A stretch of DNA of 64,000 nucleotides, from the NCBI GenBank assembly GCA_004295015.1, contig SHNE01000026.1, positions 8,675 through 72,674 of the forward strand, in the 5' to 3' direction. The DNA is from Bacteroidota bacterium (GTDB lineage: Bacteria > Bacteroidota > Bacteroidia > AKYH767-A > 2013-40CM-41-45). Below the pieces are notes generated by a model that saw nothing but the letters and a program-made list of their open reading frames with translations, did not search any database and was not told where the DNA came from. Numbering within the stretch: the stretch's first letter is position 1; each line of letters starts with the position of its first letter. Of the stretch, positions 136 through 44,871 are shown piece after piece. Both the position numbers and the translations under genes were made by a program.

Positions 136-1965
136 TTAGGCATTTTGCTTAAGCCAATAATCCAGCACAACTACCCGCCAAACCAAATTTGCATTTCTGT
201 TATCGCCTTTTTTAAATTCCTGAATCAAGTTCTTAATTTCTTTTTTGTCTAAATTATCAAGGCGCTTAAAATCTGATTCAAGTAAAAAACTCAAGGGGCC
301 TCGCAACCATTTGATTTCTCCGGGAGTCACAAACCCTTTTTTATCCTTACGCTGAGCGATCGTATCAGGAATTATTCCTTCAAGTCCTTTTCTCAAAATC
401 CTTTTCGTTGTCCCTTTATGAATGAGATCATCATCACAAAGCGAAAATGCGAATTCAACAAGCCTGTGATCTAAAAAAGGAACCCTCGATTCAATGGAAA
501 AAGCCATACTGTTTCTGTCTTCGTAATGCAACAGGTTCGGCAAAGATGTATTGAACATCAGGTGATATAAAAATTTCTTCAGAGGGCTTCCATTCAAATG
601 CTTGAACTCGAATGGTGTCTTTTGATCAGGCCCCAGAAAGGGAAAATAGTTTCTGTACTCAAAAGTGTAAAGTTGTTTTTCACTTAATGCAGTGGTTAGA
701 ATACTTTTTAACAACACATCAACACGTTTCGAAAAATTCATTTGTTGCACCTTCGCATGATTTGTCCATTCAGAGATTCCTCCAATAAAATTCAGGTTGC
801 GAAACTTTCCTCCTATCAATCTATAAAATGAATGCATGTAACCGGCAAGATATTCATCACTTCCCTGTCCATCCAACAAAACTTTCATGCCATTCTCTTT
901 GGCGAGCTTCATTACAAAATATTGGGATATTGGTGATGATCCGGCCATTGGAACTTCTGAATGAAAAAGTGCATGATCAAATACCTCGGCCACATCTTGT
1001 TCCTTCGGCATTAAAAAATGCGGTGACAAATTCGGATTACCCTTCAACACTTCATTCACCCACGGTCTTTCATCGACTTCATTCTTCCCATCATAATAAA
1101 TAGTGAAAGTTTTAAACTTCTTCTCAGTAAATTCTTTTGAAACTACTGATACTATTGATGAACTGTCCAGACCTCCACTGAGACATGCTCCTACTTCCAC
1201 ATCACTGCGCATGTGTAGACGTACACTGTCAATGAAAAGTTCACGAAAACGTTCTGCTTTTTCATAGAAACTTCCTTTTGAAGATTCAGCCGTAGAAATA
1301 TCCCAATAATGTCTGACTGTAGCTTTACCATTAGCAAAAACAAGATTGCACGCTGCAGGAAGTGATTTCAGATTACTATAATATGTTTCATCCTTAAAAC
1401 CGATCCAACCTAACTGTAAGCCACGTGATACTTGTGCCCAATTTAATTCTTTAGAAAAAAGAGGGCATAATTTGAGCTGACGGTACTCTGAACCAAAATA
1501 AAAACGATCATTCTCATGGATATAATAAAACGGCTTTATCCCAAAACGGTCCCTGCTACAGAAAAGAAATTCTTCCTTGATGTCCCAAAGTGCAAAGGCC
1601 CACATACCGACGAATTTCTCAACACAGGCTTCCCCATACTCCCTGTATGAGGCAAGGATCACTTCTGTATCTGATTCAGTCCGAAATTCATAGCCTTTAA
1701 GTCGAAGATCATCGCGCAGTTCTTTATAATTATATATTTCTCCGTTAAAAACAATGACTGCCCCGAAATATTCCATGGGCTGATTGCCATCTTCCGAGAG
1801 ATCTATAATGCTGAGTCGGTTATGCCCGAGCGATAAAGGCCGGATATACCTCGTTGATCTGGCATCCGGTCCTCGGTGTCCAATACTCTTCAACATCCCT
1901 TGAATCAAGCTCTCTGCTGATTCCGGGGAGATATGACTATCATAAAACCCTGCTATACCACACAT
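136..1965 (-). CDS. asnB: Asparagine synthase (glutamine-hydrolysing) family amidotransferase, class II Ntn glutamine amidotransferase plus AsnB synthetase domain
   Basis: 609 aa. N-terminal MCGIAGF has the Cys2 nucleophile. The SGGLDSS PP-loop is present, and the overall length and architecture match AsnB/WbpS-like amidotransferases. Confidence 0.8.
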   Translation of the reverse strand: MCGIAGFYDSHISPESAESLIQGMLKSIGHRGPDARSTRYIRPLSLGHNRLSIIDLSEDGNQPMEYFGAVIVFNGEIYNYKELRDDLRLKGYEFRTESDTEVILASYREYGEACVEKFVGMWAFALWDIKEEFLFCSRDRFGIKPFYYIHENDRFYFGSEYRQLKLCPLFSKELNWAQVSRGLQLGWIGFKDETYYSNLKSLPAACNLVFANGKATVRHYWDISTAESSKGSFYEKAERFRELFIDSVRLHMRSDVEVGACLSGGLDSSSIVSVVSKEFTEKKFKTFTIYYDGKNEVDERPWVNEVLKGNPNLSPHFLMPKEQDVAEVFDHALFHSEVPMAGSSPISQYFVMKLAKENGMKVLLDGQGSDEYLAGYMHSFYRLIGGKFRNLNFIGGISEWTNHAKVQQMNFSKRVDVLLKSILTTALSEKQLYTFEYRNYFPFLGPDQKTPFEFKHLNGSPLKKFLYHLMFNTSLPNLLHYEDRNSMAFSIESRVPFLDHRLVEFAFSLCDDDLIHKGTTKRILRKGLEGIIPDTIAQRKDKKGFVTPGEIKWLRGPLSFLLESDFKRLDNLDKKEIKNLIQEFKKGDNRNANLVWRVVVLDYWLKQNA

Positions 1966-2025
1966 TGTATCTTAAAAAAACAAATGTAAAACAATTAAAT
2001 TTACCTTTGCATCAAAATCAAATCT

Positions 2026-2655
2026 ATGACTGCTAAAAGGATTTTAGTGCTTGCCCCTCATACTGACGATGGCGAACTAGGTTGTGGCGGAAGTATCGTT
2101 CGCTATGTGGAAGAGGGCTGCACAGTAACGTATGTTGCCTTTTCAATCTGCACTAAATCTTTGCCTGAAGGCTGGGATCCTTATACACTTGAAAAAGAAG
2201 TTAAAGTGGCAACGAAAATTATGGGACTTAAAGAGGAGAATCTGATTCTTTATGACTATGATGTTCGCAAATTCAAGCAATTCAGACAGGAAATATTAGA
2301 AGAGCTCGTAAAAATAAAAAAGCAAATTGAACCTGATTTAGTTTTCGTCCCATCGCCGACAGACATTCATCAAGATCATCAGGTTATATCTGAAGAAGGG
2401 CTACGTGCATTTAAAAATACATCTATTCTTGGCTACGAATTACCATGGAATAATGTCTCTTTCAATACACGGTGTTTTATTAAATTGGAAGAAAGACACA
2501 TAGAAAAAAAGGTGGAGGCTCTTACAGCTTATAAAAGTCAGCAACACAGAACCTACCTCAACGCGCAGTTCATCCGCTCCCTGGGTATTACACGCGGTGT
2601 ACAAATTAACACTCAATTTGCAGAAGCTTTTGAAGTCATTCGTTGGATAATCTGA
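2026..2655 (+). CDS. PIG-L (LmbE-like) family N-acetylglucosaminyl deacetylase
   Basis: 209 aa. APHTDDGELGCGG resembles the AHPDDE metal-binding motif of PIG-L/LmbE/BshB/MshB deacetylases. A downstream HQDH motif is also present. Confidence 0.7.
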   Translation: MTAKRILVLAPHTDDGELGCGGSIVRYVEEGCTVTYVAFSICTKSLPEGWDPYTLEKEVKVATKIMGLKEENLILYDYDVRKFKQFRQEILEELVKIKKQIEPDLVFVPSPTDIHQDHQVISEEGLRAFKNTSILGYELPWNNVSFNTRCFIKLEERHIEKKVEALTAYKSQQHRTYLNAQFIRSLGITRGVQINTQFAEAFEVIRWII

Positions 2656-2664
2656 AATATCATT

Positions 2665-3627
2665 ATGATGAATAAATCATTTAAAATTGAAGAACTATCG
2701 AATGAAAGCTATTTCATAGCAGGACAATTCATTGGTAATGCTAACAGCAGCATTTCCGATGTTGTTGGAATTAAGGAATCACAAGGTAAAGCTTGCTCTC
2801 ATCATCTTAGTTGGATCAACGACAAGAATGTTAGCCTGATAAACAAACCACTTGAGCTTGGACTCCTCATACTAAACCAATCTTCCTTTGACTCTTTAAA
2901 GCATCATAAGTGTAATTTTCTAATTGTCGAAAATCCCCGATCAGTCTTTCAAAAAATTCTAAAACAATATTTCTCCCGTAAAAAAAGTGCAGGAATTGAA
3001 CCTTCGGCTTTTATACACCCTACGGTTAAAATACCCGGCGGATCTTACATAGGCCACAATGTGGTGATTGAAGAAGGATGTACCATTGGTAATGATTGTG
3101 AAATTTTGCATAATAGTGTAATCATGCAGAATACCAAAATCGGTGATCGTGTCCGCATCGGATCCAATTGTACCATTGGAAATTTTGGTTTTGGCTACGA
3201 AAAAAATGAGCATAACGACTATGACCTTATCGAACATTTAGGAAATGTCGTCATACAAAACGACGTACACATTCATAACAATACATGTATAGACAGAGGT
3301 GTTTTGGGAGAAACATATATTGGAGAAAATGTTAAAGTTGATAACCTGGTACACATAGCCCATGGAGTTCGGATTGAACGCAACAGTCTTATCATCGCCA
3401 ATGCAATGGTAGCCGGAAGTGTTTTAATTGGTGAAAACAGTTGGATCGCCCCCAGCACTTCTATTAAAAATCAACTCACCATTTCCTCTGGTACTTTAAC
3501 CGGCATTGGTGCTGTTGTCTTAAAAAGCTCAGAAAAAAATGACGTATTAATCGGAGCACCTGCTACTACCATGGAAGAATATAAAAAATGGAGTGTAATC
3601 AGGAAAAGCCTTCTTGATCAAAAATAA
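2665..3627 (+). CDS. LpxD-like hexapeptide-repeat (left-handed beta-helix) N-acyltransferase
   Basis: 320 aa. A roughly 100-aa N-terminal domain is followed by many [LIV]-G-x-x-x-x hexapeptide repeats (IGHNVVIEEGCTIGNDCEILHNSVI...), as in UDP-3-O-acylglucosamine N-acyltransferase. Confidence 0.6.
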   Translation: MMNKSFKIEELSNESYFIAGQFIGNANSSISDVVGIKESQGKACSHHLSWINDKNVSLINKPLELGLLILNQSSFDSLKHHKCNFLIVENPRSVFQKILKQYFSRKKSAGIEPSAFIHPTVKIPGGSYIGHNVVIEEGCTIGNDCEILHNSVIMQNTKIGDRVRIGSNCTIGNFGFGYEKNEHNDYDLIEHLGNVVIQNDVHIHNNTCIDRGVLGETYIGENVKVDNLVHIAHGVRIERNSLIIANAMVAGSVLIGENSWIAPSTSIKNQLTISSGTLTGIGAVVLKSSEKNDVLIGAPATTMEEYKKWSVIRKSLLDQK

Positions 3628-3680
3628 AAACGGATATATTTTTTTCAACCTTAGAATTATTCGAGAGTTAAGTAATTGAA

Positions 3681-5003
3681 TTATCCCTTAAGGTCATTTT
3701 TTTCCAACTGCTCAATCAACCCGGCATAAATCCTGGTTGTTTCATATCGGCTGTATATCTCCATACCACTTTTTGGATAACGGTCACCCTTAACCCACTT
3801 ACTATAAATCTCCTCTATAAAAGTCGCAATTGCACTTTCGTTATCTCTGCTGAAAACCTCTGCTCTGTCAACGCTACTTAATAGTTTGGCTGCATCGCCA
3901 ACAGGATTTCCAAGAGCAAGTATAGGATTTCCGGTAGCTACATACTCCATTAACTTTCCTGAAATTAGAAGTTCACTCTCCTTGGTTTCGGCAAGTGAAT
4001 TCAATAAAAGATTTGCATTCAACATATATTGAATGGCTTCGTGATGTGGGACATATTCAATCTGAGTGAATGTTATATCCGGTAAAAACATCTTCACCTG
4101 ATTGATAATCGACGGAGATACTTTACCAACAAAAAGGAGATTTACTTTTTCCTGCATGCCTTCAAGCTTATCAAGAACTTTCCGTAAAGCATGTATAAAA
4201 GGTAAAATGGGTTGGTTTTCGCTGAGTATACCTAAATGAAGAATGTTGAATAGTTCCGACTCTTCCTTCTCGAGACCTTTGAATAATTCGGCATCATAGC
4301 CATTATATACAAAATGCACTTTTGCCTGCTCTTCAACCGAAAGTTTACTCCTTAATAATTTAGCCATCCCGGGGCCGATAGTCGTAATCATATCTGCTTT
4401 GGACAATACTTCATGCTCAAGACGAGCGTCCATTTTTTGGGCAAGAGAAGTCCTGTACATGTCTTTGTTATAGTAGGCCTCCGTCCAGGGATCCCTAAAA
4501 TCACAGATCCACTTGATATTGTTTTTCTTTTTCAACTTTAACCCGACAAGATGTGTTGAATGAGGTGTGCCATTGGTTATGACAATGTTTATCTTCTCGT
4601 TTTTAATCAGTTCTTTCGCTTTTAAATAAGCGTACCTGTTCCATCCTTTTCTGGCATCAGGAATAAAAAAATTTCCACGGATAAAGCGACTGATCTTTCT
4701 AAACAATCCGGGTTTCGACTCACCTGCAAATCCCTGTGGAATTTCAGCACGCTCATCTCCTCCAACCATTTTGGAATAAAATTTTAATGGCTCCATCGTA
4801 GAGGTGCGATAGACCTTCACATCCTTCACATGCTCTAAAAATTTCTTATCCAAAAACTTGTAAGATGCCTTTTCAGGATCAACCGTTAGAACGATAGGTT
4901 CTATTCCGAATTCTTTCAGATACCTTGAAAAATACATCCAACGCTGAACGCCACTCCCTCCGCTGGGCGGAAAATAATAAGTCAGAATGAGTACTTTTTT
5001 CAA
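3681..5003 (-). CDS. Glycosyltransferase family 4 (GT-B fold)
   Basis: 440 aa. It starts with YYFPPSGGSGVQRW, typical of GT4 N-termini. A C-terminal EX7E-like region is present (GKLMEYVATGNPIL). Confidence 0.7.
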   Translation of the reverse strand: MKKVLILTYYFPPSGGSGVQRWMYFSRYLKEFGIEPIVLTVDPEKASYKFLDKKFLEHVKDVKVYRTSTMEPLKFYSKMVGGDERAEIPQGFAGESKPGLFRKISRFIRGNFFIPDARKGWNRYAYLKAKELIKNEKINIVITNGTPHSTHLVGLKLKKKNNIKWICDFRDPWTEAYYNKDMYRTSLAQKMDARLEHEVLSKADMITTIGPGMAKLLRSKLSVEEQAKVHFVYNGYDAELFKGLEKEESELFNILHLGILSENQPILPFIHALRKVLDKLEGMQEKVNLLFVGKVSPSIINQVKMFLPDITFTQIEYVPHHEAIQYMLNANLLLNSLAETKESELLISGKLMEYVATGNPILALGNPVGDAAKLLSSVDRAEVFSRDNESAIATFIEEIYSKWVKGDRYPKSGMEIYSRYETTRIYAGLIEQLEKNDLKG

Positions 5004-5054
5004 TCGGTAGATTTCGAATTAATTAATTCACATCGGAACTTCACTAAATGGCTA

Positions 5055-7586
5055 CTAAGCCTCTTTACCTGAACGATGTTGTCTCCATGCCATAAAGGCT
5101 AAGCCTGCAACGCAAATCAGAAGCAAAGATGAACCCGCAAGTGCGATCTTCTCTCCTGTCTTCACCACTGTCGGTTCAAACTTCCATTCAATCTTATGCT
5201 GTCCGGGAGGAATACGCATACCTCTCAATACATAGTTGACACGGAAATACGTTGATGGATTACCATCCACATACACATTCCAGCCTTTATCATAATAAAT
5301 TTCTGAAAACACAGCAAGCTGTTCGCTGGTTGCATTGCTGGTATAAATTAAATTATCCGGCTGATATTGATTCATTACTATACTTGCAGAAGAATCAGAT
5401 TGGAATTGAAAGCCATTTAGCTGATCCTTGTAACGTTGATCAACAATTGCAGTAGTAGATGGATCAAAACTGTTTAATGCAGCAATCTCTGAATCTGAAT
5501 TTGCGACAATTTCATATTGATTCACAAACCAGGCATTACCCAAGGCAGACTTATTAATCAATGGCGCTGCATCCGGATTGAAAATTATATACTTTGTGTT
5601 AAGCATATTTAAAACATCCTGTTTTGCTAAGAGCACATCCACGCCTGAGTCCGGGCTCTGCAATCCATTACGTAATGCCGTCAACTCAGGGATCAATTCG
5701 TAATCGATTAACTCCTTGTATCTTTTAAGCTTCGCTCCATGGTATCCACCTATAGACTGATGGTAATAAGAAGTGCTTGCATCATTAAAAGTATTCACAC
5801 TTATGTTCAATACCCTCTTACTTGGACTTTTATCACTTAAAATATATTGATCAGCTGGCGTTATCGGAAAGGGAATTTCATTCCCACCCTTCCTGATAAA
5901 ATTTTCCTGATGCAGGTAACGTTTGCCGACAAGAGAAAGGTCTAAAACGAGGAGTGCCATGAGCACATAAATAAAAATCTCTTTGCTGTACTTAAATCTC
6001 AAGTATGTCCAAATCAATGCTCCTGCAATCAATGCAAAAAGAAGGCTTCGCATTACATCACTTGTCATGATGTGCTTACGGGCAATTGTAACATTATCAA
6101 AAAATGCCTGGATTACATCCGATGAGATATTTTGTCCCTGTACGCTTGCCGTTACCTGATCAAATTCAGAAGCTGAATAAAAATCCGTAAACATACCCGG
6201 GGCGGCCATCATAATAACAAGTATTCCAATGAATCCAATTATGGAATAGGTAACAGGTTTTCTAAACCTTGCAAAAAAATCATTCTCCTTAACCATTTTA
6301 TCAATGGCAAGAACTGCCAGTAAAGGCACTGTGAACTCTGCAATAACAAGGGTCATCGAAACTGCTCTGAACTTATCGTATCCCGGAAGTATGTCGAGAA
6401 ATAAATCCGTTAGGGGCATAAAATTCTTTCCCCAACTTAACATGACAGATAAAATGGTTATAAAAACCAAGCCCCACTTCACGGGACCTTGCACAGTAAA
6501 TGCTCCAAGAATAAAGAGTAAACATACAATTACTCCCAGATAAACCGGACCAGAAGTAAAAGGTTGGTCTCCAAAATAAGCACTGAAGGATGCTATGTTT
6601 TGCTTATACGCAGCATCCACATCTTTTAATGCATCTTTATTATTCTTTGATATCACCTCAGAGCCTCCACCTTTGAAATCGGGAACTATAAATGTCCAAC
6701 TCTCTCCCACCCCATAACTCCAATCGGTTATATAATCCCGATCCAATCCACTTGTTTTATTCTCTTCATTAATTGTTAATTCAGATGGTCCACGAGTGGA
6801 ATATTTAGCGTACTCCTGTGTTGCCCAAATATTAGTTATGTTCGTTGAAACGGCCAGTGCAGCCATGCCTAATAACAGAAAGCTTGATTTAACAAAAGCA
6901 GGAAGTCGCTTTTCTTTTAATGCACTAATAAACTCTGCTACAGCAAGAGATACAACTATTAACATAAGGTAATAGCTAATCTGTAAATGATTTGTGTTTA
7001 ACTCAAGTGCCAGAGCAAGGCCGGCAATAGAGGCACCAAGCATCCATCTCCCTCGATAGGTCAACAATACACCGGCGACAACCGGTGCCATATATCCTAT
7101 GGCATGCGCTTTGGTATTATGGCCAGCTTCCAGAATTATTATAAAATAAGAACTAAAGGCAAAAGCAAAAGCTCCCATGATTGCTACTCTTTTATCAACC
7201 CCAAGAACAATGAGAAGAAAATAAAAACCAATCAGATAAAGAAAAAAGAAATTCGCAGGTGATGGGAAAAACATAATAGCCTTGTCTATGTATTGAACAA
7301 GGTTGGCTCCATACACAGCCGATATCTGATAAGCCGGCATTCCACCGAACATAGAATTTGTCCAAAGTGGCATGTGTCCGGTAGCCTCTTTAGTACTCAG
7401 GATCTCCTGAGCCATCCCTTTCCAATTATTTATATCCGTCTGGCGTAGATCCTTACCTTGAAATAAAGGCATAAAGTACAGCCAGGTTACAAATACGAAT
7501 GCAAGAATAGCAAGTGCGTAGGGCAAACATTTTTTCATAAAATACTGGTTTAAAGTCAAATTGGCTTGTTCTGTTCCCAAACCCAA
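5055..7586 (-). CDS. YfhO-family polytopic membrane protein (GT-C-like glycosyltransferase candidate)
   Basis: 843 aa. A dozen or more predicted TM helices in the N-terminal two-thirds are followed by a large C-terminal soluble domain. The length and architecture match Bacteroidota YfhO proteins. An alternative start at the MKK codon at 7538 would give a cleaner first TM. Confidence 0.55.
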   Translation of the reverse strand: MGLGTEQANLTLNQYFMKKCLPYALAILAFVFVTWLYFMPLFQGKDLRQTDINNWKGMAQEILSTKEATGHMPLWTNSMFGGMPAYQISAVYGANLVQYIDKAIMFFPSPANFFFLYLIGFYFLLIVLGVDKRVAIMGAFAFAFSSYFIIILEAGHNTKAHAIGYMAPVVAGVLLTYRGRWMLGASIAGLALALELNTNHLQISYYLMLIVVSLAVAEFISALKEKRLPAFVKSSFLLLGMAALAVSTNITNIWATQEYAKYSTRGPSELTINEENKTSGLDRDYITDWSYGVGESWTFIVPDFKGGGSEVISKNNKDALKDVDAAYKQNIASFSAYFGDQPFTSGPVYLGVIVCLLFILGAFTVQGPVKWGLVFITILSVMLSWGKNFMPLTDLFLDILPGYDKFRAVSMTLVIAEFTVPLLAVLAIDKMVKENDFFARFRKPVTYSIIGFIGILVIMMAAPGMFTDFYSASEFDQVTASVQGQNISSDVIQAFFDNVTIARKHIMTSDVMRSLLFALIAGALIWTYLRFKYSKEIFIYVLMALLVLDLSLVGKRYLHQENFIRKGGNEIPFPITPADQYILSDKSPSKRVLNISVNTFNDASTSYYHQSIGGYHGAKLKRYKELIDYELIPELTALRNGLQSPDSGVDVLLAKQDVLNMLNTKYIIFNPDAAPLINKSALGNAWFVNQYEIVANSDSEIAALNSFDPSTTAIVDQRYKDQLNGFQFQSDSSASIVMNQYQPDNLIYTSNATSEQLAVFSEIYYDKGWNVYVDGNPSTYFRVNYVLRGMRIPPGQHKIEWKFEPTVVKTGEKIALAGSSLLLICVAGLAFMAWRQHRSGKEA

Positions 7587-7686: not shown

Positions 7687-7932
7687 CTAGTCCACTTCTT
7701 CATAATCCACATACTCCCCCGGCTGAATTTTTCCGGTCTTTTTGTCCTTAATACTCTCAACGGTAACACTGCCCTCAGGCTTACGGTCGGCTTGTTGTGA
7801 TTGCTGAGCTTGCTGTTGCTTAGCCATTTCTTCTGCCGCTTTTTGCAATGCCTTAGCTGCACCAAAAACTAAAAATCTACGCAACCAACCTAAAATAATA
7901 ATGATTAGAAGTATGATGAGAATATATTTCAT
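7687..7932 (-). CDS. Small membrane protein, DUF4834-like (N-terminal TM, Gln-rich linker, acidic C-terminus)
   Basis: 81 aa. It starts MKYILIILLIIIILGWL and ends GEYVDYEEVD. It lies immediately downstream of carB on the same strand. Confidence 0.45.
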   Translation of the reverse strand: MKYILIILLIIIILGWLRRFLVFGAAKALQKAAEEMAKQQQAQQSQQADRKPEGSVTVESIKDKKTGKIQPGEYVDYEEVD

Positions 7933-7970: not shown

Positions 7971-10787
7971 CTATCTCGAGAGGTAAAGATTCCGTTCTGA
8001 ATAAACTTTCTGGAAAAACTCGTCCTCCAAATCATCAATAAAGTAAATAGCTTCCCCTGTTGATTTCATCTCAGGACCGAGTTCCTTATTTACATCAAGG
8101 AATTTATCGAATGAGAAAACAGGAACCTTAATTGCATAACCTTTCTTCGTCGGAGCGAATATAAAATCTTTTAGCTTTTTTGCACCAAGCATAAGTTTAG
8201 TTGCGTAGTTGACATAAGGCTCATCGTAAGCCTTTGCAATAAACGGCACCGTTCTCGAGGCGCGTGGATTTGCTTCAATCACATAAACCTTTTCATCTTT
8301 AATGGCAAACTGAATATTAATCAAACCTTTCACTTTCATGGCTAATGCAATCTTTCTTGTAATCGTTTCGATTTGATGGATGATATCATCGCTCAAATCA
8401 AATGGAGGGAGAACCGCATTACTGTCGCCACTATGAATTCCGGCCGGTTCAATATGTTCCATAATACCGATAATGTACACATCTTCGCCATCACATATCG
8501 CATCGGCCTCCGCTTCTATTGCCTTTTCCAAAAAATGATCCAGCAATATTTTATTGTCAGGTATATCTTGAAGGATTTGTACAACGTGCGACTCCAATTC
8601 CTCTTCATTAATAACAATCTTCATGCTTTGTCCTCCTAAAACATAGGAAGGTCTTACAAGAAGTGGAAAACCCAAATCCCTTGCTATTCCGACAGACTGA
8701 TCAGCATTTTCTACTACGCCGAATTTCGGATAAGGTATGTTCAGATCTCTTAATAATGTTGAGAACTGACCTCTATCTTCAGCAAGGTCTAATGATGCAA
8801 AGCTGGTACCAATAATTTTGATGCCGTATTTATTCAATTTCTCTGCTAACTTCAATGCGGTTTGCCCACCAAGCTGAACAATTACCCCTTCAGGTTTTTC
8901 ATGTTCGATGATCTCATAAATATGTTCCCAGAAAACAGGTTCGAAGTATAATTTATCAGAGATATCGAAATCTGTTGATACTGTTTCCGGATTACAATTG
9001 ATCATGATCGTTTCATATCCACATTCCCTGGCAGCTAAAACACCATGGACACAACTATAATCAAATTCAATTCCCTGTCCAATTCGATTTGGTCCTGATC
9101 CAAGAATGATGACTTTCTTTTTATCTGAAACAACACTTTCGTTTTCTTCATCGAATGTGGAATAATAATACGGAGTGCTTGCCTCGAATTCTGCTGCGCA
9201 GGTATCCACTAATTTCCATACCCTGCGAATTTTTAACTCGCCCCTCTTTTTGAATACCTGACTTTCCAAACAACGGAGCAAATGTGCTACTTGTCTGTCG
9301 GCATAACCTTTTTTCTTTGCTTCCATCAACAATTCCTTCGGAATTGTATCGACGGTGTATTTCTCAATTTGTTTTTCAAGGACTATCAACTCTTCGATTT
9401 GACGAAGGAACCAAGGGTCAATCTTTGTAAGCTTATAAATAGTATTGAAAGGAATTCCTAATTTGAATGCATCGTAGATATGAAACAGCCTATTCCAACG
9501 TGGCCTTTCAAGACTATCCAAAATATCTGCCTGGTCTCTTATTTCACGTCCATCAGCCCCCAATCCATTTCTCTTAATTTCCAAAGACTGACAAGCTTTC
9601 TGCAATGCCTCCTGGAAGGAGCGACCAATTCCCATGGCTTCTCCGACAGACTTCATTGATAAACCGAGATGGCGATCACTTCCTTTGAACTTATCGAAAT
9701 TCCAACGTGGTACTTTTACAATAACATAGTCTAAAGTTGGTTCAAAAAAAGCGGAGGTGCTTTTTGTAATTTGATTCTTCAATTCGTCGAGGTGGAAGCC
9801 GATTGATAATTTAGCAGCAATCTTTGCAATCGGATAACCGGTGGCCTTTGATGCAAGAGCAGAAGATCGGGACACACGCGGATTGATTTCGATGACAATA
9901 ATTTCATTCTCATCGTTAGGATTCACCGAAAACTGAATGTTACATCCCCCGGCAAAATTCCCAATTCCGTTCATGCATTTAATTGCGAGGTCACGCATTT
10001 TTTGATAGGTGACATCCGACAAAGTCATTGCCGGAGCAACGGTAATGGAATCTCCGGTATGGATTCCCATTGGATCAAAATTCTCGATGGAACAAATGAT
10101 GATGACATTTCCGGCAGCATCACGCAGCAATTCCAATTCAAATTCTTTCCATCCCATGATTGACTTCTCAATCAATACTTCGTGTGTTGGTGAAGCGTGC
10201 AATCCTCTGTTTAACGCGCCGTCAAACTCTTCTCTTGTATTTACAAAGCCTCCACCTGTTCCTCCAAGAGTGAAGGATGGACGAATAACCAATGGAAATC
10301 CAATTTCCTGTGCAATTTCTTTTCCCTCTAAGTATGACGTAGCGGTTCTGCCTTTACAAACACCTGCGTCAAGTTCCAGCATTCTAAGACGAAATTTCTC
10401 CCTGTCTTCTGTCATCTGAATGGCCGCAATGTCTACGCCTATCATTTTTACTCCATACTTATCCCAAATACCTGCCTTCTGACAATCAATGGCAAGATTT
10501 AAGGCAGTTTGTCCTCCCATCGTTGGAAGAACAGCATCAATCTTATGCTTTTCAAGAATTTGAATGATGGATTTCTTTGTCAGTGGCTTGAGATAAATAT
10601 TATCAGCAGTCACCTTATCCGTCATAATAGTAGCCGGATTCGAGTTAATAAGGGTAACTTCTATCCCTTCCTCCTTTAATGACCGTGAAGCCTGAGAGCC
10701 TGCATAATCAAATTCACAAGCCTGTCCGATAATAATAGGACCGGAACCGATGATCAATACTGATTTTATGGATTTGTCGCGAGGCAC
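7971..10787 (-). CDS. carB: Carbamoyl-phosphate synthase large subunit
   Basis: 938 aa. IIGSGPIIIGQACEFDYAGSQA at the N-terminus, duplicated ATP-grasp halves and an MGS-like C-terminus are unmistakable for CarB. Confidence 0.95.
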   Translation of the reverse strand: MPRDKSIKSVLIIGSGPIIIGQACEFDYAGSQASRSLKEEGIEVTLINSNPATIMTDKVTADNIYLKPLTKKSIIQILEKHKIDAVLPTMGGQTALNLAIDCQKAGIWDKYGVKMIGVDIAAIQMTEDREKFRLRMLELDAGVCKGRTATSYLEGKEIAQEIGFPLVIRPSFTLGGTGGGFVNTREEFDGALNRGLHASPTHEVLIEKSIMGWKEFELELLRDAAGNVIIICSIENFDPMGIHTGDSITVAPAMTLSDVTYQKMRDLAIKCMNGIGNFAGGCNIQFSVNPNDENEIIVIEINPRVSRSSALASKATGYPIAKIAAKLSIGFHLDELKNQITKSTSAFFEPTLDYVIVKVPRWNFDKFKGSDRHLGLSMKSVGEAMGIGRSFQEALQKACQSLEIKRNGLGADGREIRDQADILDSLERPRWNRLFHIYDAFKLGIPFNTIYKLTKIDPWFLRQIEELIVLEKQIEKYTVDTIPKELLMEAKKKGYADRQVAHLLRCLESQVFKKRGELKIRRVWKLVDTCAAEFEASTPYYYSTFDEENESVVSDKKKVIILGSGPNRIGQGIEFDYSCVHGVLAARECGYETIMINCNPETVSTDFDISDKLYFEPVFWEHIYEIIEHEKPEGVIVQLGGQTALKLAEKLNKYGIKIIGTSFASLDLAEDRGQFSTLLRDLNIPYPKFGVVENADQSVGIARDLGFPLLVRPSYVLGGQSMKIVINEEELESHVVQILQDIPDNKILLDHFLEKAIEAEADAICDGEDVYIIGIMEHIEPAGIHSGDSNAVLPPFDLSDDIIHQIETITRKIALAMKVKGLINIQFAIKDEKVYVIEANPRASRTVPFIAKAYDEPYVNYATKLMLGAKKLKDFIFAPTKKGYAIKVPVFSFDKFLDVNKELGPEMKSTGEAIYFIDDLEDEFFQKVYSERNLYLSR

Positions 10788-14022: not shown

Positions 14023-14628
14023 CTAGATCTGCTCTTCCTGATTTTTTAAAATCTGGTACAGAAATTCGCGGGCTCTGAAAAGCTGAGCTTTTACAGTTCC
14101 TAATGGTAACTGCAACTCGTCTGCAATTTCCTCATAAGAACGCTCCTGAAAATAGCGCAACTCAACCAGTCGTTTGTATCTGGGCTTTAGCTTTTCAACA
14201 ACGTCCCGCATCAAGAGTGCCTTTTGCTTTTTAATCATATTCTCCTCCGGATCAAGCATGGGGGATTTGATTTCAAACTGCATCTCTTGCCCGTCGCTAT
14301 TCTCAAAATTCTTGTCAATCGAAAAAGTGTATTTCCGTTTACGACGAATGAAATCAATGCAATTATTCGTTGCTATTTTGAACAACCATGTACTGAAAGC
14401 AAAATCCGGAGTATACTGATGCAGGTTTTTAAATGCTTTTCCAAATGCTTCGATAGTAAGATCGTCTGCATCATCCCGATTATTCACCATCTTCAGCAAC
14501 ATGAAGTAGATCGAATCTTTATAGCGTTGCATCAATTCCGCGTAGGCTTTTTGGTCACCTGTCACGGCCAACTGGACGAGCTTAAAGTCCACTTGTGCTT
14601 TCTCGGAAAGATTAGGATTTACTTCCAT
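14023..14628 (-). CDS. RNA polymerase sigma-70 family factor (ECF-type, regions 2 and 4)
   Basis: 201 aa. Region 2 (FSTWLFKIATNNCIDFIRRKRK) and the region 4 HTH (SYEEIADELQLPLGTVKAQLFRAR) are recognisable. The start overlaps the upstream GT2 gene by 10 nt. Confidence 0.8.
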   Translation of the reverse strand: MEVNPNLSEKAQVDFKLVQLAVTGDQKAYAELMQRYKDSIYFMLLKMVNNRDDADDLTIEAFGKAFKNLHQYTPDFAFSTWLFKIATNNCIDFIRRKRKYTFSIDKNFENSDGQEMQFEIKSPMLDPEENMIKKQKALLMRDVVEKLKPRYKRLVELRYFQERSYEEIADELQLPLGTVKAQLFRAREFLYQILKNQEEQI

Positions 14629-15740
14629 GCTTTTTGTTTTGTAAATAGATTAGTTATATAAAATAGCGGTTGTACCAAAAGGTGCACCGGCTCGAGGATA
14701 GGAAAGATCCAGAATAAATCTTTTTCTCTCAGACGTGAGGTATTCCTCCAAAGAATTGGGAGTTTCAGCAGTAAAACGCCTCCATACAAAGATAAGAGAA
14801 TTCTCCAATCTAACTCAAGAACGAGTAATGTGATTAATAATCCATAAAAAACCCATCCACTGAATGGCACCATAAAGAGACGAAACTTATCGTAAAATTT
14901 ATAATGTGAAGCCGTACTCATATGCCTCACTTTTTGATTTTGCCACTCAGAAAAACCCGATTTAACTTCTGAAACAGTAAATGATTTCGGGTCAATTTCT
15001 ATGGCAGTATTTTTTGATGTTGAATTGGAGTTTACAAAGAGATCATCATCCCCGGAAAACAAATGATTATGCTTGGCAAAACCCTTATTCCTGAAAAACA
15101 AGGATCGTCGATAAGCTAAATTTCTTCCGACACCCATGTAAGCTTTTCCACCTAATGCTGCAGAGAGATAATTCATCGCAATAAAAAATCCATCGAAGCG
15201 AATCAGCTTATTTAAAAAACCCTTTGTCTTCATGTATGCACCATAACCAAGAACTATCTCAGTCTCAGTATTAAAGTGTGATTGCATTATGGAACACCAT
15301 TCCTTGCTTTCAACCGAACAGTCGGCATCTGTCATAAGCAACAATTCATTCTTTGCTGCTTTGATTCCAAGAGTCAATGCAAACTTTTTTCCATGCCTGT
15401 ATTTTTCCTGCTCCACCAAAGTCACTACTTTTAGATGCGGGTACTTTTTGGACATTTCTTCCAGATATTCTCCGGTCTCATCCCACGAGCAATCATTGAC
15501 AACGATTACTTCAAAATCAGGATAATTTTGTTCCAATACACCGGTTAAATTTTTTCTGAGATTCAGCACTTCATTCTTTGCACAAATAATCACGGACACA
15601 GGCTGAACGTTCGTTCCTTCGGCTTTCCTTTTATAAAAAGCCAAACGTCGGAAAGCAATCCAAAATTGTCCCAATTGCATAAGTGCCGCTACTGACAAAA
15701 TAAAGAGCAGGATTAAATTCGTTGATTCGTTGATTTCCAT
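14619..15740 (-). CDS. Family 2 glycosyltransferase, membrane-anchored
   Basis: 373 aa. An N-terminal TM is followed by VSVIICAKNE...VIVVNDCSWDETGEY (the GT2 DxD region), then QxxRW-like features and C-terminal TM helices. Confidence 0.75.
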   Translation of the reverse strand: MEINESTNLILLFILSVAALMQLGQFWIAFRRLAFYKRKAEGTNVQPVSVIICAKNEVLNLRKNLTGVLEQNYPDFEVIVVNDCSWDETGEYLEEMSKKYPHLKVVTLVEQEKYRHGKKFALTLGIKAAKNELLLMTDADCSVESKEWCSIMQSHFNTETEIVLGYGAYMKTKGFLNKLIRFDGFFIAMNYLSAALGGKAYMGVGRNLAYRRSLFFRNKGFAKHNHLFSGDDDLFVNSNSTSKNTAIEIDPKSFTVSEVKSGFSEWQNQKVRHMSTASHYKFYDKFRLFMVPFSGWVFYGLLITLLVLELDWRILLSLYGGVLLLKLPILWRNTSRLREKDLFWIFPILEPVHLLVQPLFYITNLFTKQKAWK

Positions 15741-43515: not shown

Positions 43516-44871
43516 ATGAAATTTAAAAGTATCAATCCCTTTAACGGAGATGTTCTTGCGACCTATGAAGAACAGGACGAGAAATCTGTATTAAATACTT
43601 TATCAAAATCACAAAAAGCATATCAAGGCTGGAGGAAGACGAGTGTGACTGATCGTACTTCCATGATGAAAAAGGCAGCCAAGGTACTTCGGGACAATGC
43701 TGAAGAGTATGCAATGATGATCACACTCGAAATGGGAAAACCCATTACTGAATCGAGAGCAGAAGTGAATAAATGCGCCTGGGTCTGTGATTATTATGCA
43801 GATAATGCAGCTGAATTTCTAAAAGATGAAATCATCAAAACAGATGCTCAGCAAAGCTTTGTCAGACATGATCCCATAGGAGGAATACTGGCCATCATGC
43901 CATGGAATTTTCCATTCTGGCAAGTGTTCAGATTTGCTGCTCCTACTCTTATGGCAGGTAATGTCGGACTACTCAAGCATGCATCAAATGTTTTTGGCTG
44001 CGCAAAACAGATAGAAGAGGTTTTCATCAAAGCCGGCTTTCCTGAGGGAGTATTTCAAAATATTATTTTACATCATGACAAAACAGAAATGCTCATTTCA
44101 CATGAGGCGATTCGTGCAGTAACACTTACCGGCAGCGAAAGAGCAGGATCATCGGTAGCTTCCTTAGCCGGGAAATACATAAAGAAATCTCTTTTAGAAT
44201 TGGGAGGAAACAATTCTTTCATTGTTTTGGAAGATGCTGACATAGACAAAGCAGTTGAGACCGCATTAGTAGCACGAATGCTCAACTGCGGACAAAGTTG
44301 TATTGCTGCGAAAAGATTTATTCTAATCGGAGATGTTTACGAAAAATTCACAAAGAAATTTATTGAATCAGTGACCAAATTAAAATCAGGTGATCCGCGC
44401 GATGAATCCACTATGGTAGGAACACTAGCACGTAAAGATCTGGCAGACGAACTGCAGGATCAAATGTCAAGATCAATAAAAGCAGGTGATCAATGATTGT
44501 ATGGGGGAAAACAAAACGGTGCTTACCATGAACCTACAGTTCTTGGAAATGTTGTACCCGGCATGGCCACCTTTGACGAAGAGACTTTCGGGCCATTGGC
44601 ATCAATGATCAGAGCCAAAGACATCAATGAAGCAATATCACTTTCTGAAAATTCGAAATTTGGTTTAGGCGTCACCCTCTGCACAAGTAATATTGAAAAA
44701 GGACTTGCTCTTGCAGAACATTTTAGCGATGGAGCTTATTTCATCAATGAATTAGTGAAGTCAGATCCTCGCCTTCCATTTGGTGGTGAAAAAACATCGG
44801 GCTTTGGAAGAGAGTTAGCAAGAGACGGGATGATGGCTTTCATAAACAGGAAAACTGTTTATGTAAAATAA
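43516..44871 (+). pseudogene. NAD(P)-dependent aldehyde dehydrogenase (succinate-semialdehyde dehydrogenase-like) interrupted by one in-frame TGA at 44494-44496
   Basis: The ORFs 43516-44496 and 44497-44871 are in the same frame and abut across a single TGA. Together they give a full-length ALDH of about 451 aa with catalytic Glu (LELGGNNS) and Cys (GQSCIAAKR) motifs. The stop falls where homologues have a hydrophobic residue (GA-x-V-V-x-GG). Confidence 0.6.

Follow-up and report, generated by a model that had tools for sequence, protein, structure and literature searches.

A candidate layered envelope-glycosylation module with a YfhO-GT4 core and an exchangeable PIG-L/LpxD-like cassette in a Bacteroidota bacterium

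Five contiguous genes in the window (the whole stretch of 64,000 nucleotides of Bacteroidota DNA that was analysed) most likely serve to modify a single sugar residue in a glycan of the cell envelope. With a probability of approximately 0.55, they belong to a layered envelope-glycosylation module, in which a PIG-L-family de-N-acetylase, an LpxD-like left-handed beta-helix (LbH) acyltransferase and an AsnB-family amidotransferase tailor the sugar, a GT4 glycosyltransferase places it, and a YfhO-family protein transfers it to a periplasmic acceptor. In the best reading of the locus, the tailored residue is a hexosamine (uronic acid) of a lipid-linked glycan that is transferred by YfhO in the periplasm, possibly onto proteins.

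Gene content and layout of the locus

The five open reading frames and the families to which an earlier note, made from the letters alone, had assigned them were recovered by means of the ORF list, Pfam and NCBIfam (Table 1). The same five proteins are deposited in GenBank as TAH42207.1 to TAH42211.1 (Bacteroidetes MAG), where the GT4 and YfhO proteins are labelled 'hypothetical', the hexapeptide protein LpxD and the AsnB protein asparagine synthase. The genes are arranged in three transcription units: AsnB forms one by itself, PIG-L and the LpxD-like gene share a second, and YfhO and GT4 a third. The public records give YfhO as the shorter of the two lengths in Table 1, and translation therefore probably begins with the ATG at position 7538. 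With respect to the direction of transcription, carB is located upstream of YfhO and not downstream, as had been stated previously. A DUF4834 gene is located between carB and YfhO. The cluster in the window is without an initiating phosphoglycosyltransferase, a flippase or a UDP-sugar dehydrogenase.

Table 1 Features of the locus (positions within the window)
Feature	Position	Strand	Details
AsnB-family amidotransferase	136-1965	-	609 aa; N-terminal MCGIAG; ORF list and Pfam/NCBIfam
Divergent AsnB/PIG-L intergenic region	1966-2025		60 bp; three TAnnTTTG matches
PIG-L/LmbE-family de-N-acetylase	2026-2655	+	209 aa; ORF list and PF02585
LpxD-like hexapeptide / LbH N-acyltransferase	2665-3627	+	320 aa; Hexapep, NF002060
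Divergent GT4-like GT-B glycosyltransferase	3681-5003	-	440 aa; TTG start; Glyco_transf_4
YfhO-family membrane protein, predicted GT-C	5055-7538	-	827 aa from ATG; ORF to 7586 = 843 aa
DUF4834 small protein	7687-7932	-	81 aa; hydrophobic N-terminus; directly upstream of YfhO
carB (carbamoyl-phosphate synthase large subunit)	7971-10787	-	NF003671, 1426 bits

The matches to the Bacteroidetes -7 box (TAnnTTTG) in the divergent intergenic region, at 1981-1988 (-), 2002-2009 (+) and 2019-2026 (-), constitute weak evidence because the motif is not enriched across the window (59 observed versus 70.7 expected); a search for this box upstream of YfhO returned none.

A conserved core and an exchangeable cassette

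Neighbourhood counts were obtained from tblastn searches of short contigs from MAGs and metagenomes. Co-conservation in relatives, which the earlier note had proposed as a check, was indeed found: the five-gene arrangement of the window recurs in L174/L175 and L092 at approximately 75% identity, and a co-linear YfhO-GT4-PIG-L-LbH(-AsnB) operon, whose genes overlap or nearly abut, is present in distant Bacteroidota and in Balneola (L033, L035, L036, L090 and L029), with all five genes in L033. Of 21 metagenome loci that were anchored on GT4 and extend at least 9 kb on each side of it, 16 encode a YfhO homologue; in 14 loci, YfhO is located immediately upstream of GT4 on the same strand. Among 23 loci with an LbH protein at least 44% identical, 18 have PIG-L at most 400 bp from LbH.

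The genes do not represent the single five-gene unit previously envisaged, but rather a conserved core of DUF4834, YfhO and a dedicated GT4, often beside carB, to which AsnB is joined in the clade of the window, together with a swappable PIG-L/LbH cassette. DUF4834 is a sixth conserved member of the cluster, being encoded directly upstream of YfhO and in the same orientation in four non-syntenic loci (L090, L036, L101 and L168) and also in L172 to L175 (tblastn), with the Pfam family assigned in L173 and L089. AsnB is syntenic with YfhO-GT4 in L172, L173, L174 and L033. carB, which adjoins YfhO/GT4 in at least 13 divergent loci and in several different arrangements, is a deeply conserved syntenic neighbour for which no functional part is claimed.

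PIG-L and the LpxD-like transferase constitute a two-gene cassette inserted in this conserved backbone. Both genes are missing from L172, though its YfhO, AsnB and carB are 78%, 75% and 95% identical to those of the window, and likewise from L173; in these close relatives the synteny is otherwise shared, but their GT4 proteins exhibit just 35-36% identity to that of the window. YfhO-GT4-PIG-L is found without LbH in L089 and L093. Other loci have the order YfhO-GT4-DUF7033-GNAT (L106) or YfhO-GT4-AsnB-DUF7033-GNAT (L173), in which DUF7033 matches the NCBIfam VimE deacetylase model (E 1.4e-16). The same operon slot is thus filled by an unrelated pair, a VimE-like deacetylase and a GNAT, which supports the logic of deacetylation followed by re-acylation that had been proposed from the window alone. 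In a neighbour-joining tree of GT4 proteins, drawn without support values, PIG-L is adjacent in all eight members of the subclade of the window and LbH in six of the eight, with YfhO as a further constant neighbour; the GT4 subtype appears to co-evolve with PIG-L. The operon of L029 is flanked by a Wzx flippase, a UDP-GlcNAc 2-epimerase and further GT4s, while in L119/L131 Wzx and nonulosonic-acid genes are located between GT4 and YfhO.

Enzyme families and the proposed pathway

The PIG-L protein matches PF02585 (63.5 bits, Pfam cutoff 28.2), and its metal-binding and catalytic motifs, read from the translation and from an alignment to TT1542/BcZBP, are intact (H12-T-D14-D15 and H115-Q-D-H118). 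Its assignment as BshB was rejected, the score on the NCBIfam BshB1 model being 73.7, far under the cutoff of 182.5. The LpxD-like protein scores 254 bits on the LpxD subfamily model NF002060 (cutoff 207), and its best PDB matches are LpxD structures, the alignment including the N-terminal domain and pairing H233 with the His of the conserved LpxD IAH motif. On the LpxD equivalog TIGR01853, however, it reaches 202.3 bits, under the cutoff of 242.5, whereas true Bacteroidota LpxDs attain 333-348 bits, i.e. 130-145 bits more, and identification as the housekeeping LpxD was rejected on these grounds. Judged by these model scores, the protein is an LpxD paralogue. Neither protein of the cassette thus belongs to the housekeeping orthologue groups that the earlier note had named as its counter-explanation, as both the LpxD equivalog and the BshB cutoffs are missed. 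Relatives of LbH paired with PIG-L are located in glycan clusters, among them Wzx/Wzy clusters, in many phyla; the pair is also present in archaeal and actinobacterial MAGs.

AsnB contains Asn_synthase and GATase_7 domains (Pfam) and obtains 459.6 bits on TIGR01536 (NCBIfam cutoff 267), the second-best model being TIGR03108 eps_aminotran_1 (362.6, under its cutoff of 817). Amidation of a sugar carboxylate is its proposed role by analogy with the AsnB-type WbpS, for which uronamide formation was shown by deletion (PMC7468200); given that it passes a generic asparagine-synthase equivalog model, it could in principle be a housekeeping enzyme. For GT4, the sole Pfam detection is the GT4 N-terminal domain (Glyco_transf_4, 43.7 bits, cutoff 28.5); the top Foldseek matches of its AF2 model (pLDDT 87.9) are glycogen synthase, MshA, GlgM, BshA, WaaG and PimB', and no match was obtained to the NCBIfam BshA and MshA models. 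YfhO matches PF09586 (35.9 bits, cutoff 28.5) over its last 77 residues only and is predicted to be a glycosyltransferase with a GT-C fold, which, of the two activities suggested earlier, favours transfer of the product and not flipping. According to an in silico prediction (2026 preprint), Bacteroidota YfhO is the missing O-OTase; both the OTase and the core-glycan machinery are described as not known in a 2025 review. P. gingivalis O-glycosylates proteins, reportedly without YfhO (2026 preprint). Firmicute YfhO glycosylates teichoic acids and not proteins (PMC5836110).

We infer from these data the substrates, the step order, the acyl group, the acceptor and the product. PIG-L would remove the N-acetyl group of a hexosamine, probably UDP-activated GlcNAc or ManNAc and possibly in uronic-acid form; the freed amine would be re-acylated by the LpxD-like enzyme with a non-acetyl group from acyl-ACP or acyl-CoA; and AsnB would convert a carboxylate to an amide. 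The dedicated, cytoplasmic GT4 would then put the tailored residue onto a lipid-linked glycan, and after flipping, YfhO, as a GT-C enzyme that uses a polyprenyl-linked sugar donor on the periplasmic side of the membrane, would move the glycan or sugar to a periplasmic acceptor. Ser/Thr residues of exported proteins are the most probable acceptor, as in Bacteroidota general O-glycosylation, LPS or another glycolipid being less likely. Alternatively, PIG-L may act on a HexNAc just installed by GT4. To our knowledge, all characterised PIG-L enzymes act on glycosides made by a GT4 enzyme, and none on nucleotide sugars. Two candidate step orders are retained because these precedents act on glycosides while the N-terminal domain of LbH suggests a UDP-sugar. 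The order GT4 then PIG-L, as initially proposed, is one of the two; the LpxD-type N-terminal domain retained by LbH (UDP-binding in LpxD) suggests instead that the sugar is tailored while still nucleotide-activated.

It is conceivable, if rather unlikely, that a polyprenyl-linked amino sugar is the joint product of GT4 and the tailoring enzymes and is transferred by YfhO to lipid A, the LPS core or another outer-membrane lipid. In the analogous systems ArnC-ArnD-ArnT, LgmA-LgmC-LgmB and FlmF2-NaxD-FlmK, a lipid-linked N-acyl sugar is deacylated prior to transfer by a GT-C enzyme. A GT4 paired with a PIG-L-superfamily de-N-acetylase has been proposed for the P. aeruginosa LPS core, where WaaG is followed by PIG-L-type DnpA and N-alanylation (PMC10579960), and PIG-L/LbH pairs do occur in O-antigen-like Wzx/Wzy clusters. 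Against this, a GT2 polyprenyl-phosphate glycosyltransferase is not adjacent, and the Wzx and nonulosonic-acid genes near YfhO resemble O-glycan clusters, although this is not decisive.

The product is still less likely to be a linking sugar for type IX secretion (T9SS) cargo, i.e. a functional equivalent of that made by the P. gingivalis Wbp/Vim pathway. The alternative VimE-like/GNAT cassette accompanied by a WbpS-like AsnB would fit such a role, as would the variation of linking sugars by genus (N-seryl, N-glycyl, N-alanyl) and their synthesis by different enzymes; yet amino acid transfer is not expected of an LpxD-like enzyme, the attachment chemistry requires a free amine, no NCBIfam Vim model is matched by GT4 or AsnB, and P. 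gingivalis has the Vim pathway while reportedly missing YfhO. Cargo genes adjoin the module in L090, L035, L033 and L173, and at least eight T9SS cargo proteins are encoded in the window, but such genes are very common in these genomes, so that adjacency is weak evidence.

That the genes are chance neighbours with separate housekeeping duties (LbH serving lipid A synthesis as an additional LpxD, AsnB making asparagine, PIG-L being an unrelated deacetylase), as the NCBI labels and the passes on NF002060 and TIGR01536 might imply, is highly improbable given the LpxD equivalog scores, the conservation of the PIG-L/LbH pair between phyla, with archaeal and actinobacterial MAGs among them, from which lipid A synthesis is not expected, and the persistence of the module through rearrangements.

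Comparison with known systems

The envelope-glycosylation module preferred here shares its proposed chemical logic with the Wbp/Vim pathway of P. gingivalis and Tannerella forsythia (VimE, VimA, WbpS, VimF), in which an activated hexosaminuronic acid is 2-N-deacetylated, its amine re-acylated with a group other than acetate, an AsnB-family enzyme performs amidation and a GT4 carries out installation; VimE is the proposed deacetylase and VimA determines the added amino acid (PMC7468200). The families are, however, unrelated, as CE4-like VimE corresponds to PIG-L and VimA to an LpxD-like beta-helix enzyme; no Wbp genes are near the module, which is tied to YfhO, reportedly absent from P. gingivalis. 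The PIG-L/LbH pair also resembles LpxC-LpxD, where removal of the N-acetyl group from a UDP-HexNAc derivative is followed by N-acylation through a trimeric beta-helix enzyme, but the deacetylase is PIG-L instead of LpxC, and acyltransferases of the window type occur in glycan contexts and not in lpxD-fabZ/lpxC-lpxA.

Coupling of a retaining GT-B enzyme to PIG-L is known from PIG-A/PIG-L (GPI), MshA/MshB (mycothiol), BshA/BshB (bacillithiol) and the proposed WaaG/DnpA. The window differs in that re-acylation of the amine is probable and that a GT-C enzyme completes the pathway, and the BshB1, BshA and MshA model results give no sequence-level membership. In CsbB/GtrB-type systems, a cytoplasmic glycosyltransferase supplies a lipid-linked donor to a YfhO-family GT-C enzyme. 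The pairing of such an enzyme with a cytoplasmic glycosyltransferase in teichoic acid modification of Bacillus and Listeria (PMC5836110) is like that of the window, except that the partner in the window is a GT4-like GT-B and not a GT2, that a GtrA-type flippase is not adjacent (some related loci having a Wzx flippase), and that the host is Gram-negative, without teichoic acids.

Finally, the variable genes beside YfhO-GT4 resemble the O-glycosylation loci of Bacteroidota, i.e. lfg of B. fragilis and the 27-kb cluster of T. forsythia, the latter comprising wzx, pse genes, a 605-aa AsnB, wecB and wecC (PMC6120980). The metG-wzx organisation of these loci is absent from the window, and the role of YfhO and GT4 in protein glycosylation is putative; what the variable genes and these loci share are Wzx, GT4s, UDP-GlcNAc 2-epimerase, nonulosonic-acid genes and an AsnB of approximately 605-609 aa.

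Gene layout and sequence setting

The earlier note on this DNA had described five contiguous genes, the coordinates of which proved exact and the family assignments of which were all upheld by Pfam and NCBIfam; carB, which it had placed downstream of YfhO, lies upstream when the direction of transcription is considered. In public gene calls YfhO starts at the ATG at position 7538, corresponding to a protein of 827 aa. GenBank holds identical proteins, TAH42207.1 to TAH42211.1, from a Bacteroidetes MAG, in which GT4 and YfhO are labelled ‘hypothetical’ and LbH (the LpxD-like protein) is labelled LpxD.

Features of the cluster and its immediate neighbours (window coordinates)
Feature	Position	Strand	Basis or location
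AsnB	136-1965	-	ORF list; Pfam + NCBIfam
PIG-L	2026-2655	+	ORF list; Pfam + NCBIfam
LbH, LpxD-like hexapeptide protein	2665-3627	+	ORF list; Pfam + NCBIfam
GT4	3681-5003	-	ORF list; Pfam + NCBIfam
YfhO	5055-7586	-	ORF list; Pfam + NCBIfam
DUF4834, 81 aa, hydrophobic N-terminus	7687-7932	-	between YfhO and carB
carB	7971-10787	-	

The remainder of the window is an ordinary Bacteroidota chromosome rich in cargo genes of type IX secretion (T9SS). C-terminal T9SS sorting domains (Por_Secre_tail or CHU_C) are present on at least eight proteins between 19543 and 58752, including a CotH-kinase/lamin-tail protein (1340 aa) and a PKD protein (1424 aa), and T9SS cargo genes also border the YfhO module in L090, L035, L033 and L173 (L numbers denote homologous loci on other genome or metagenome contigs). 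Elsewhere, an aldehyde dehydrogenase gene (43516-44871, + strand) contains a single in-frame TGA at 44494-44496 (...IKAGDQ*LYGGKQNG...), past which the frame runs on for 124 codons; the stop could be due to a nonsense mutation or an assembly error, or the gene could be a pseudogene.

No Rfam matches were found in the window at gathering thresholds, and the scan for sigma-70 promoters and terminators was uninformative, since shuffled sequence yields at least as many sites as the window itself. The Bacteroidetes -7 motif TAnnTTTG is not enriched window-wide (59 observed versus 70.7 expected); three matches cluster locally in the AsnB/PIG-L intergenic region, which constitutes weak evidence. The window shows no GC shift across the PIG-L/LbH pair, and composition thus gives no sign of recent transfer.

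The YfhO-GT4 core and its neighbourhood

Co-conservation, on which the earlier reading of the cluster depended, was borne out, as the window arrangement recurs in relatives of approximately 75% identity (L174/L175 and L092), which retain it despite other genes being inserted nearby. Between the window and L174, PIG-L (9359-9988 in L174) is 97% identical, equal to carB, the corresponding values being 74% for LbH, its operon partner, 75% for GT4, 80% for YfhO and 82% for AsnB; conservation within the cassette is uneven. A co-linear operon of the order YfhO-GT4-PIG-L-LbH-AsnB is found in L033, and one of the order YfhO-GT4-PIG-L-LbH in L035, L036, L090 and the Balneola locus L029, the reading frames of these distant-lineage operons overlapping or nearly abutting. 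The gene order of the window is that of L033 with the PIG-L/LbH pair inverted.

The deepest association, as revealed by a metagenome scan performed with the GT4 alignment, is that between GT4 and YfhO: a YfhO homologue is present in 16 of the 21 listed GT4 loci whose contigs extend 9 kb or more to either side, and in 14 listed loci YfhO is located directly upstream of GT4 on the same strand. DUF4834 is positioned directly upstream of YfhO in the non-syntenic loci L090, L036, L101 and L168 as well, so its product may work with YfhO, as a subunit or otherwise as its partner. A chance association of carB can be dismissed for the YfhO-GT4 core, given that at least 13 divergent loci of varied gene order, with YfhO 31-80% identical, have carB next to YfhO/GT4 (carB lies by YfhO/GT4 in L106, L135, L142, L148, L150, L151, L157, L164, L166-L168 and L172-L175).

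Two of these loci, L172 and L173, are from close relatives and share with the window the synteny carB-DUF4834-YfhO-GT4-AsnB-peptidase S51 (L172: YfhO 78%, AsnB 75% and carB 95% identical; L173: YfhO 67% identical). Neither contains PIG-L or LbH, and their GT4 proteins are only 35-36% identical to that of the window. In an NJ tree of the 96 GT4 homologues listed, calculated without support values, YfhO and PIG-L are adjacent in all eight members of the window GT4 clade, and LbH is also adjacent in six of these. Within a conserved frame, the GT4 subtype and the deacetylase seem to form an exchangeable block that is passed on as a whole, which speaks for their being directly linked in metabolism. 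The view of the five genes as a single unit gives way to that of a core with a swappable cassette, although the logic of the original interpretation was largely right.

The GT4 protein matches Glyco_transf_4 (43.7 versus 28.5) and has no Pfam match to Glycos_transf_1. Considering that a PDB sequence search returned no match for either GT4 or YfhO, AF2 models and fold searches were employed for both. The GT4 model (pLDDT 87.9) has a GT-B fold, and its nearest structural matches are retaining GT4/GT5 enzymes such as MshA, BshA, WaaG and PimB’ (Foldseek E ~1e-13, 11-15% identity), so that a two-Rossmann GT-B architecture with an N-terminal GT4 domain and a nucleotide-sugar-binding C-terminal domain is predicted. 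For YfhO, the PF09586 score is 35.9 versus 28.5 bits, but the match involves only residues 735-811, aligned to the profile end; its homologues carry precomputed PF09586 assignments and several are named YfhO family by NCBI. For YfhO a GT-C fold is predicted, the first periplasmic loop of which contains a conserved acidic residue; an invariant Asp (D35) comes just after the first predicted helix. No GT2 (CsbB/GtrB-type) donor synthase or GtrA-type flippase is adjacent to YfhO, the partner of which is GT4-like. The sole GT2 of the window (14619-15740, - strand, 373 aa) is located 7 kb from YfhO and has GT21-like (ceramide glucosyltransferase-type) matches; a similar GT2/GT21 gene is found ~5 kb from the PIG-L/LbH pair of L008.

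The proposed tailoring genes and their alternatives

PIG-L scores 63.5 bits against PF02585 (gathering score 28.2), and its metal/catalytic motifs PHTDD (H12, D14, D15) and HQDH (H115 to H118) are intact and line up with those of TT1542 and BcZBP. It falls well short of the equivalog cutoffs (those of curated single-function NCBIfam models) for bacillithiol BshB1 and BshB2 (73.7 versus 182.5 and 37.8 versus 195.25, respectively), and curated cutoffs likewise exclude GT4 from BshA.

The best PDB matches of LbH are LpxD structures, and its family profile aligns to 4e75, 2iu8 and 3eh0 over both domains. In LpxD the catalytic His is H239 (E. coli), the uracil is stacked by F41 and the N-terminal domain is UDP-binding. 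Two residues are invariant in the LbH family: H233 falls on the histidine of the IAH motif of LpxD, and W50 falls at or beside the phenylalanine of its ‘TF’ motif, the profile alignment thus recovering the beta-helix, the N-terminal domain and the catalytic-His position of LpxD. LbH clears the broad LpxD subfamily model (254 versus a cutoff of 207), but not the LpxD equivalog TIGR01853 (202.3 versus 242.5 bits). With this model, scores of 333-348 bits are reached by four true LpxDs, which are Bacteroidota proteins from genome-scan loci of low identity that lack PIG-L, and five other PIG-L-linked LbH homologues score 191-239 bits (L026 was left out due to an in-frame stop in its coordinates). 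LbH is thus not the housekeeping LpxD. Judged from sequence, LbH is an LpxD-derived N-acyltransferase, and its retention of the N-terminal domain of LpxD leads us to suspect a UDP-linked amino sugar as its substrate. The protein (TAH42209.1, window 2665-3627) and its PIG-L-linked homologues are publicly named ‘UDP-3-O-(3-hydroxymyristoyl)glucosamine N-acyltransferase’ despite failing the equivalog cutoff. This LpxD naming is probably a systematic over-annotation, and PIG-L-linked beta-helix acyltransferases in public records are flagged here as such.

To survey the pair, the LbH family alignment was searched against species-representative genomes, yielding at least 80 loci, which were then examined by tblastn with the window proteins. 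PIG-L was located no more than 400 bp from LbH in 18 of the 23 listed loci where LbH is at least 44% identical to that of the window, in 14 of 31 at 37-43% identity and in 1 of 26 at 36% or less, these counts, like those of the metagenome scan, representing samples rather than a census. The pair occurs in Bacteroidota, Chlorobiota, Glaciecola, Pseudoalteromonas and Smithella, often inside classical Wzx/Wzy glycan clusters (e.g. L007 and L008). In the window, LbH has PIG-L and GT4 as neighbours and no lipid A gene context. The LbH family is not restricted to lipid A producers, as PIG-L-paired homologues are present on Acidimicrobiia and Heimdallarchaeota MAG contigs; on a Methanomassiliicoccales contig, PIG-L and LbH homologues are ~5 kb apart. 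Based on this wide taxonomic spread and the frequent Wzx/Wzy setting, PIG-L and LbH form a mobile two-gene unit for the tailoring of surface glycans. Full-text searches in polysaccharide and O-antigen contexts retrieved no account of a PIG-L plus LpxD-like gene pair.

AsnB begins with MCGIAG, which provides the N-terminal Cys of its class II glutamine amidotransferase domain, and is composed of GATase_7 and Asn_synthase domains (TIGR01536, 459.6 versus 267). It remains below the cutoff of TIGR03108 (eps_aminotran_1; 362.6 versus 816.9 bits), and it is consequently the gene context alone that points to a sugar-amidating role.

In other loci a different pair accompanies YfhO-GT4. In L173, a DUF7033 protein and a GNAT follow AsnB, and L106 contains the operon YfhO-GT4-DUF7033-GNAT (DUF7033 plus Acetyltransf_9 GNAT: L173, 15861-18192; L106, 5303-7595). 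The DUF7033 protein matches, well under the equivalog cutoff, the NCBIfam VimE model (UDP-2,3-diacetamido-2,3-dideoxy-glucuronate deacetylase) with an E value of 1.4e-16 over residues 86-395 of 434. The role proposed for VimE in the Wbp/Vim pathway is removal of the 2-N-acetyl group. With T. forsythia vimA in place of its own, P. gingivalis added Gly instead of Ser, and no uronamide was formed once wbpS, which codes for an enzyme of the AsnB family, had been deleted (PMC7468200). Two unrelated deacetylase and acyltransferase pairs thus fill one slot next to YfhO-GT4, with AsnB close by, the pattern expected if this slot encodes deacetylation followed by re-acylation, and the VimE-like plus GNAT pair of L106 and L173 lends independent support to the same logic as originally put forward. 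A DUF7033 plus GNAT pair is also found in L006 (11696-14034), where an LbH homologue and a sulfotransferase lie next to it.

In further lineages, YfhO-GT4 is accompanied by Wzx flippases, UDP-GlcNAc 2-epimerase, extra GT4s and nonulosonic-acid genes. In L119 (10001-20530) and L131 (10001-19961), a TagF-like (Glyphos_transf) protein follows GT4, with NeuB, a HAD phosphatase, a CMP-sugar cytidylyltransferase, a CN-hydrolase and Wzx encoded between GT4 and YfhO; the locus appears to be the YfhO-GT4 module in a nonulosonic-acid form.

Proposed pathway and known systems

The reading we favour, with a probability of about 0.55 for the mechanism as a whole, is that a tailored hexosamine is built onto a lipid-linked glycan and transferred by YfhO. 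A hexosamine, possibly in uronic-acid form, would be de-N-acetylated by PIG-L, the freed amine would receive a non-acetyl acyl group from the LpxD-like enzyme, and a carboxylate would be converted to an amide by AsnB. The residue would then be placed onto a lipid-linked glycan by the co-evolving GT4, followed by periplasmic transfer by YfhO, most probably to proteins. The analysis establishes gene content, predicted folds, co-conservation and cassette swapping; the substrates, the step order, the acyl group and the acceptor are inferred. As to the order, the PIG-L precedents act, to our knowledge, after a GT4, whereas the N-terminal domain of LbH suggests a UDP-sugar.

Decoration of LPS or a glycolipid, in the manner of Arn/Lgm/NaxD or WaaG/DnpA, is an unlikely alternative, for which the WaaG/DnpA precedent surfaced in the LmbE/O-antigen literature (PMC10579960). 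It is improbable that the module produces the T9SS linking sugar. The likeness to Wbp/Vim is functional only, the VimE and VimA combination being absent from the window, in which tblastn detected no homologue of the L173 DUF7033 or GNAT. Very doubtful is a bacterial counterpart of GPI anchoring, in which the module would build a glucosamine glycolipid anchor at the inner membrane for attachment of exported proteins such as T9SS cargo, the swappable cassettes supplying lineage-specific acyl or amide decoration. Eukaryotic GPI assembly proceeds from PIG-A (a GT4) through PIG-L to a GT-C mannosyltransferase, enzyme types matched by GT4, PIG-L and YfhO of the window; if true, this would reveal how Bacteroidota other than Porphyromonas anchor their cargo. 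That the genes are unrelated housekeeping neighbours is the least credible account in view of their co-conservation.

What is new is that YfhO has two constant companions, GT4 and the small DUF4834 protein, together with interchangeable cassettes (PIG-L/LpxD-like, VimE-like/GNAT and nonulosonic-acid genes) flanking the YfhO core. These cassettes offer genetic handles, with a predictable mass shift, on what YfhO transfers and onto what. A role for YfhO as an O-glycosylation transferase was proposed very recently and in silico only, a July 2026 preprint predicting Bacteroidota YfhO to be the missing O-oligosaccharyltransferase; according to a 2025 review, the OTase, ligase and core-glycan enzymes of phylum-wide Bacteroidota protein O-glycosylation are still unidentified. 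The gene content accompanying YfhO-GT4 in other lineages resembles that of the cluster for protein O-glycosylation in T. forsythia, where a 605-aa AsnB is likewise encoded (PMC6120980). The system described here is known tailoring chemistry in a new form, tied to a conserved, uncharacterised YfhO module.
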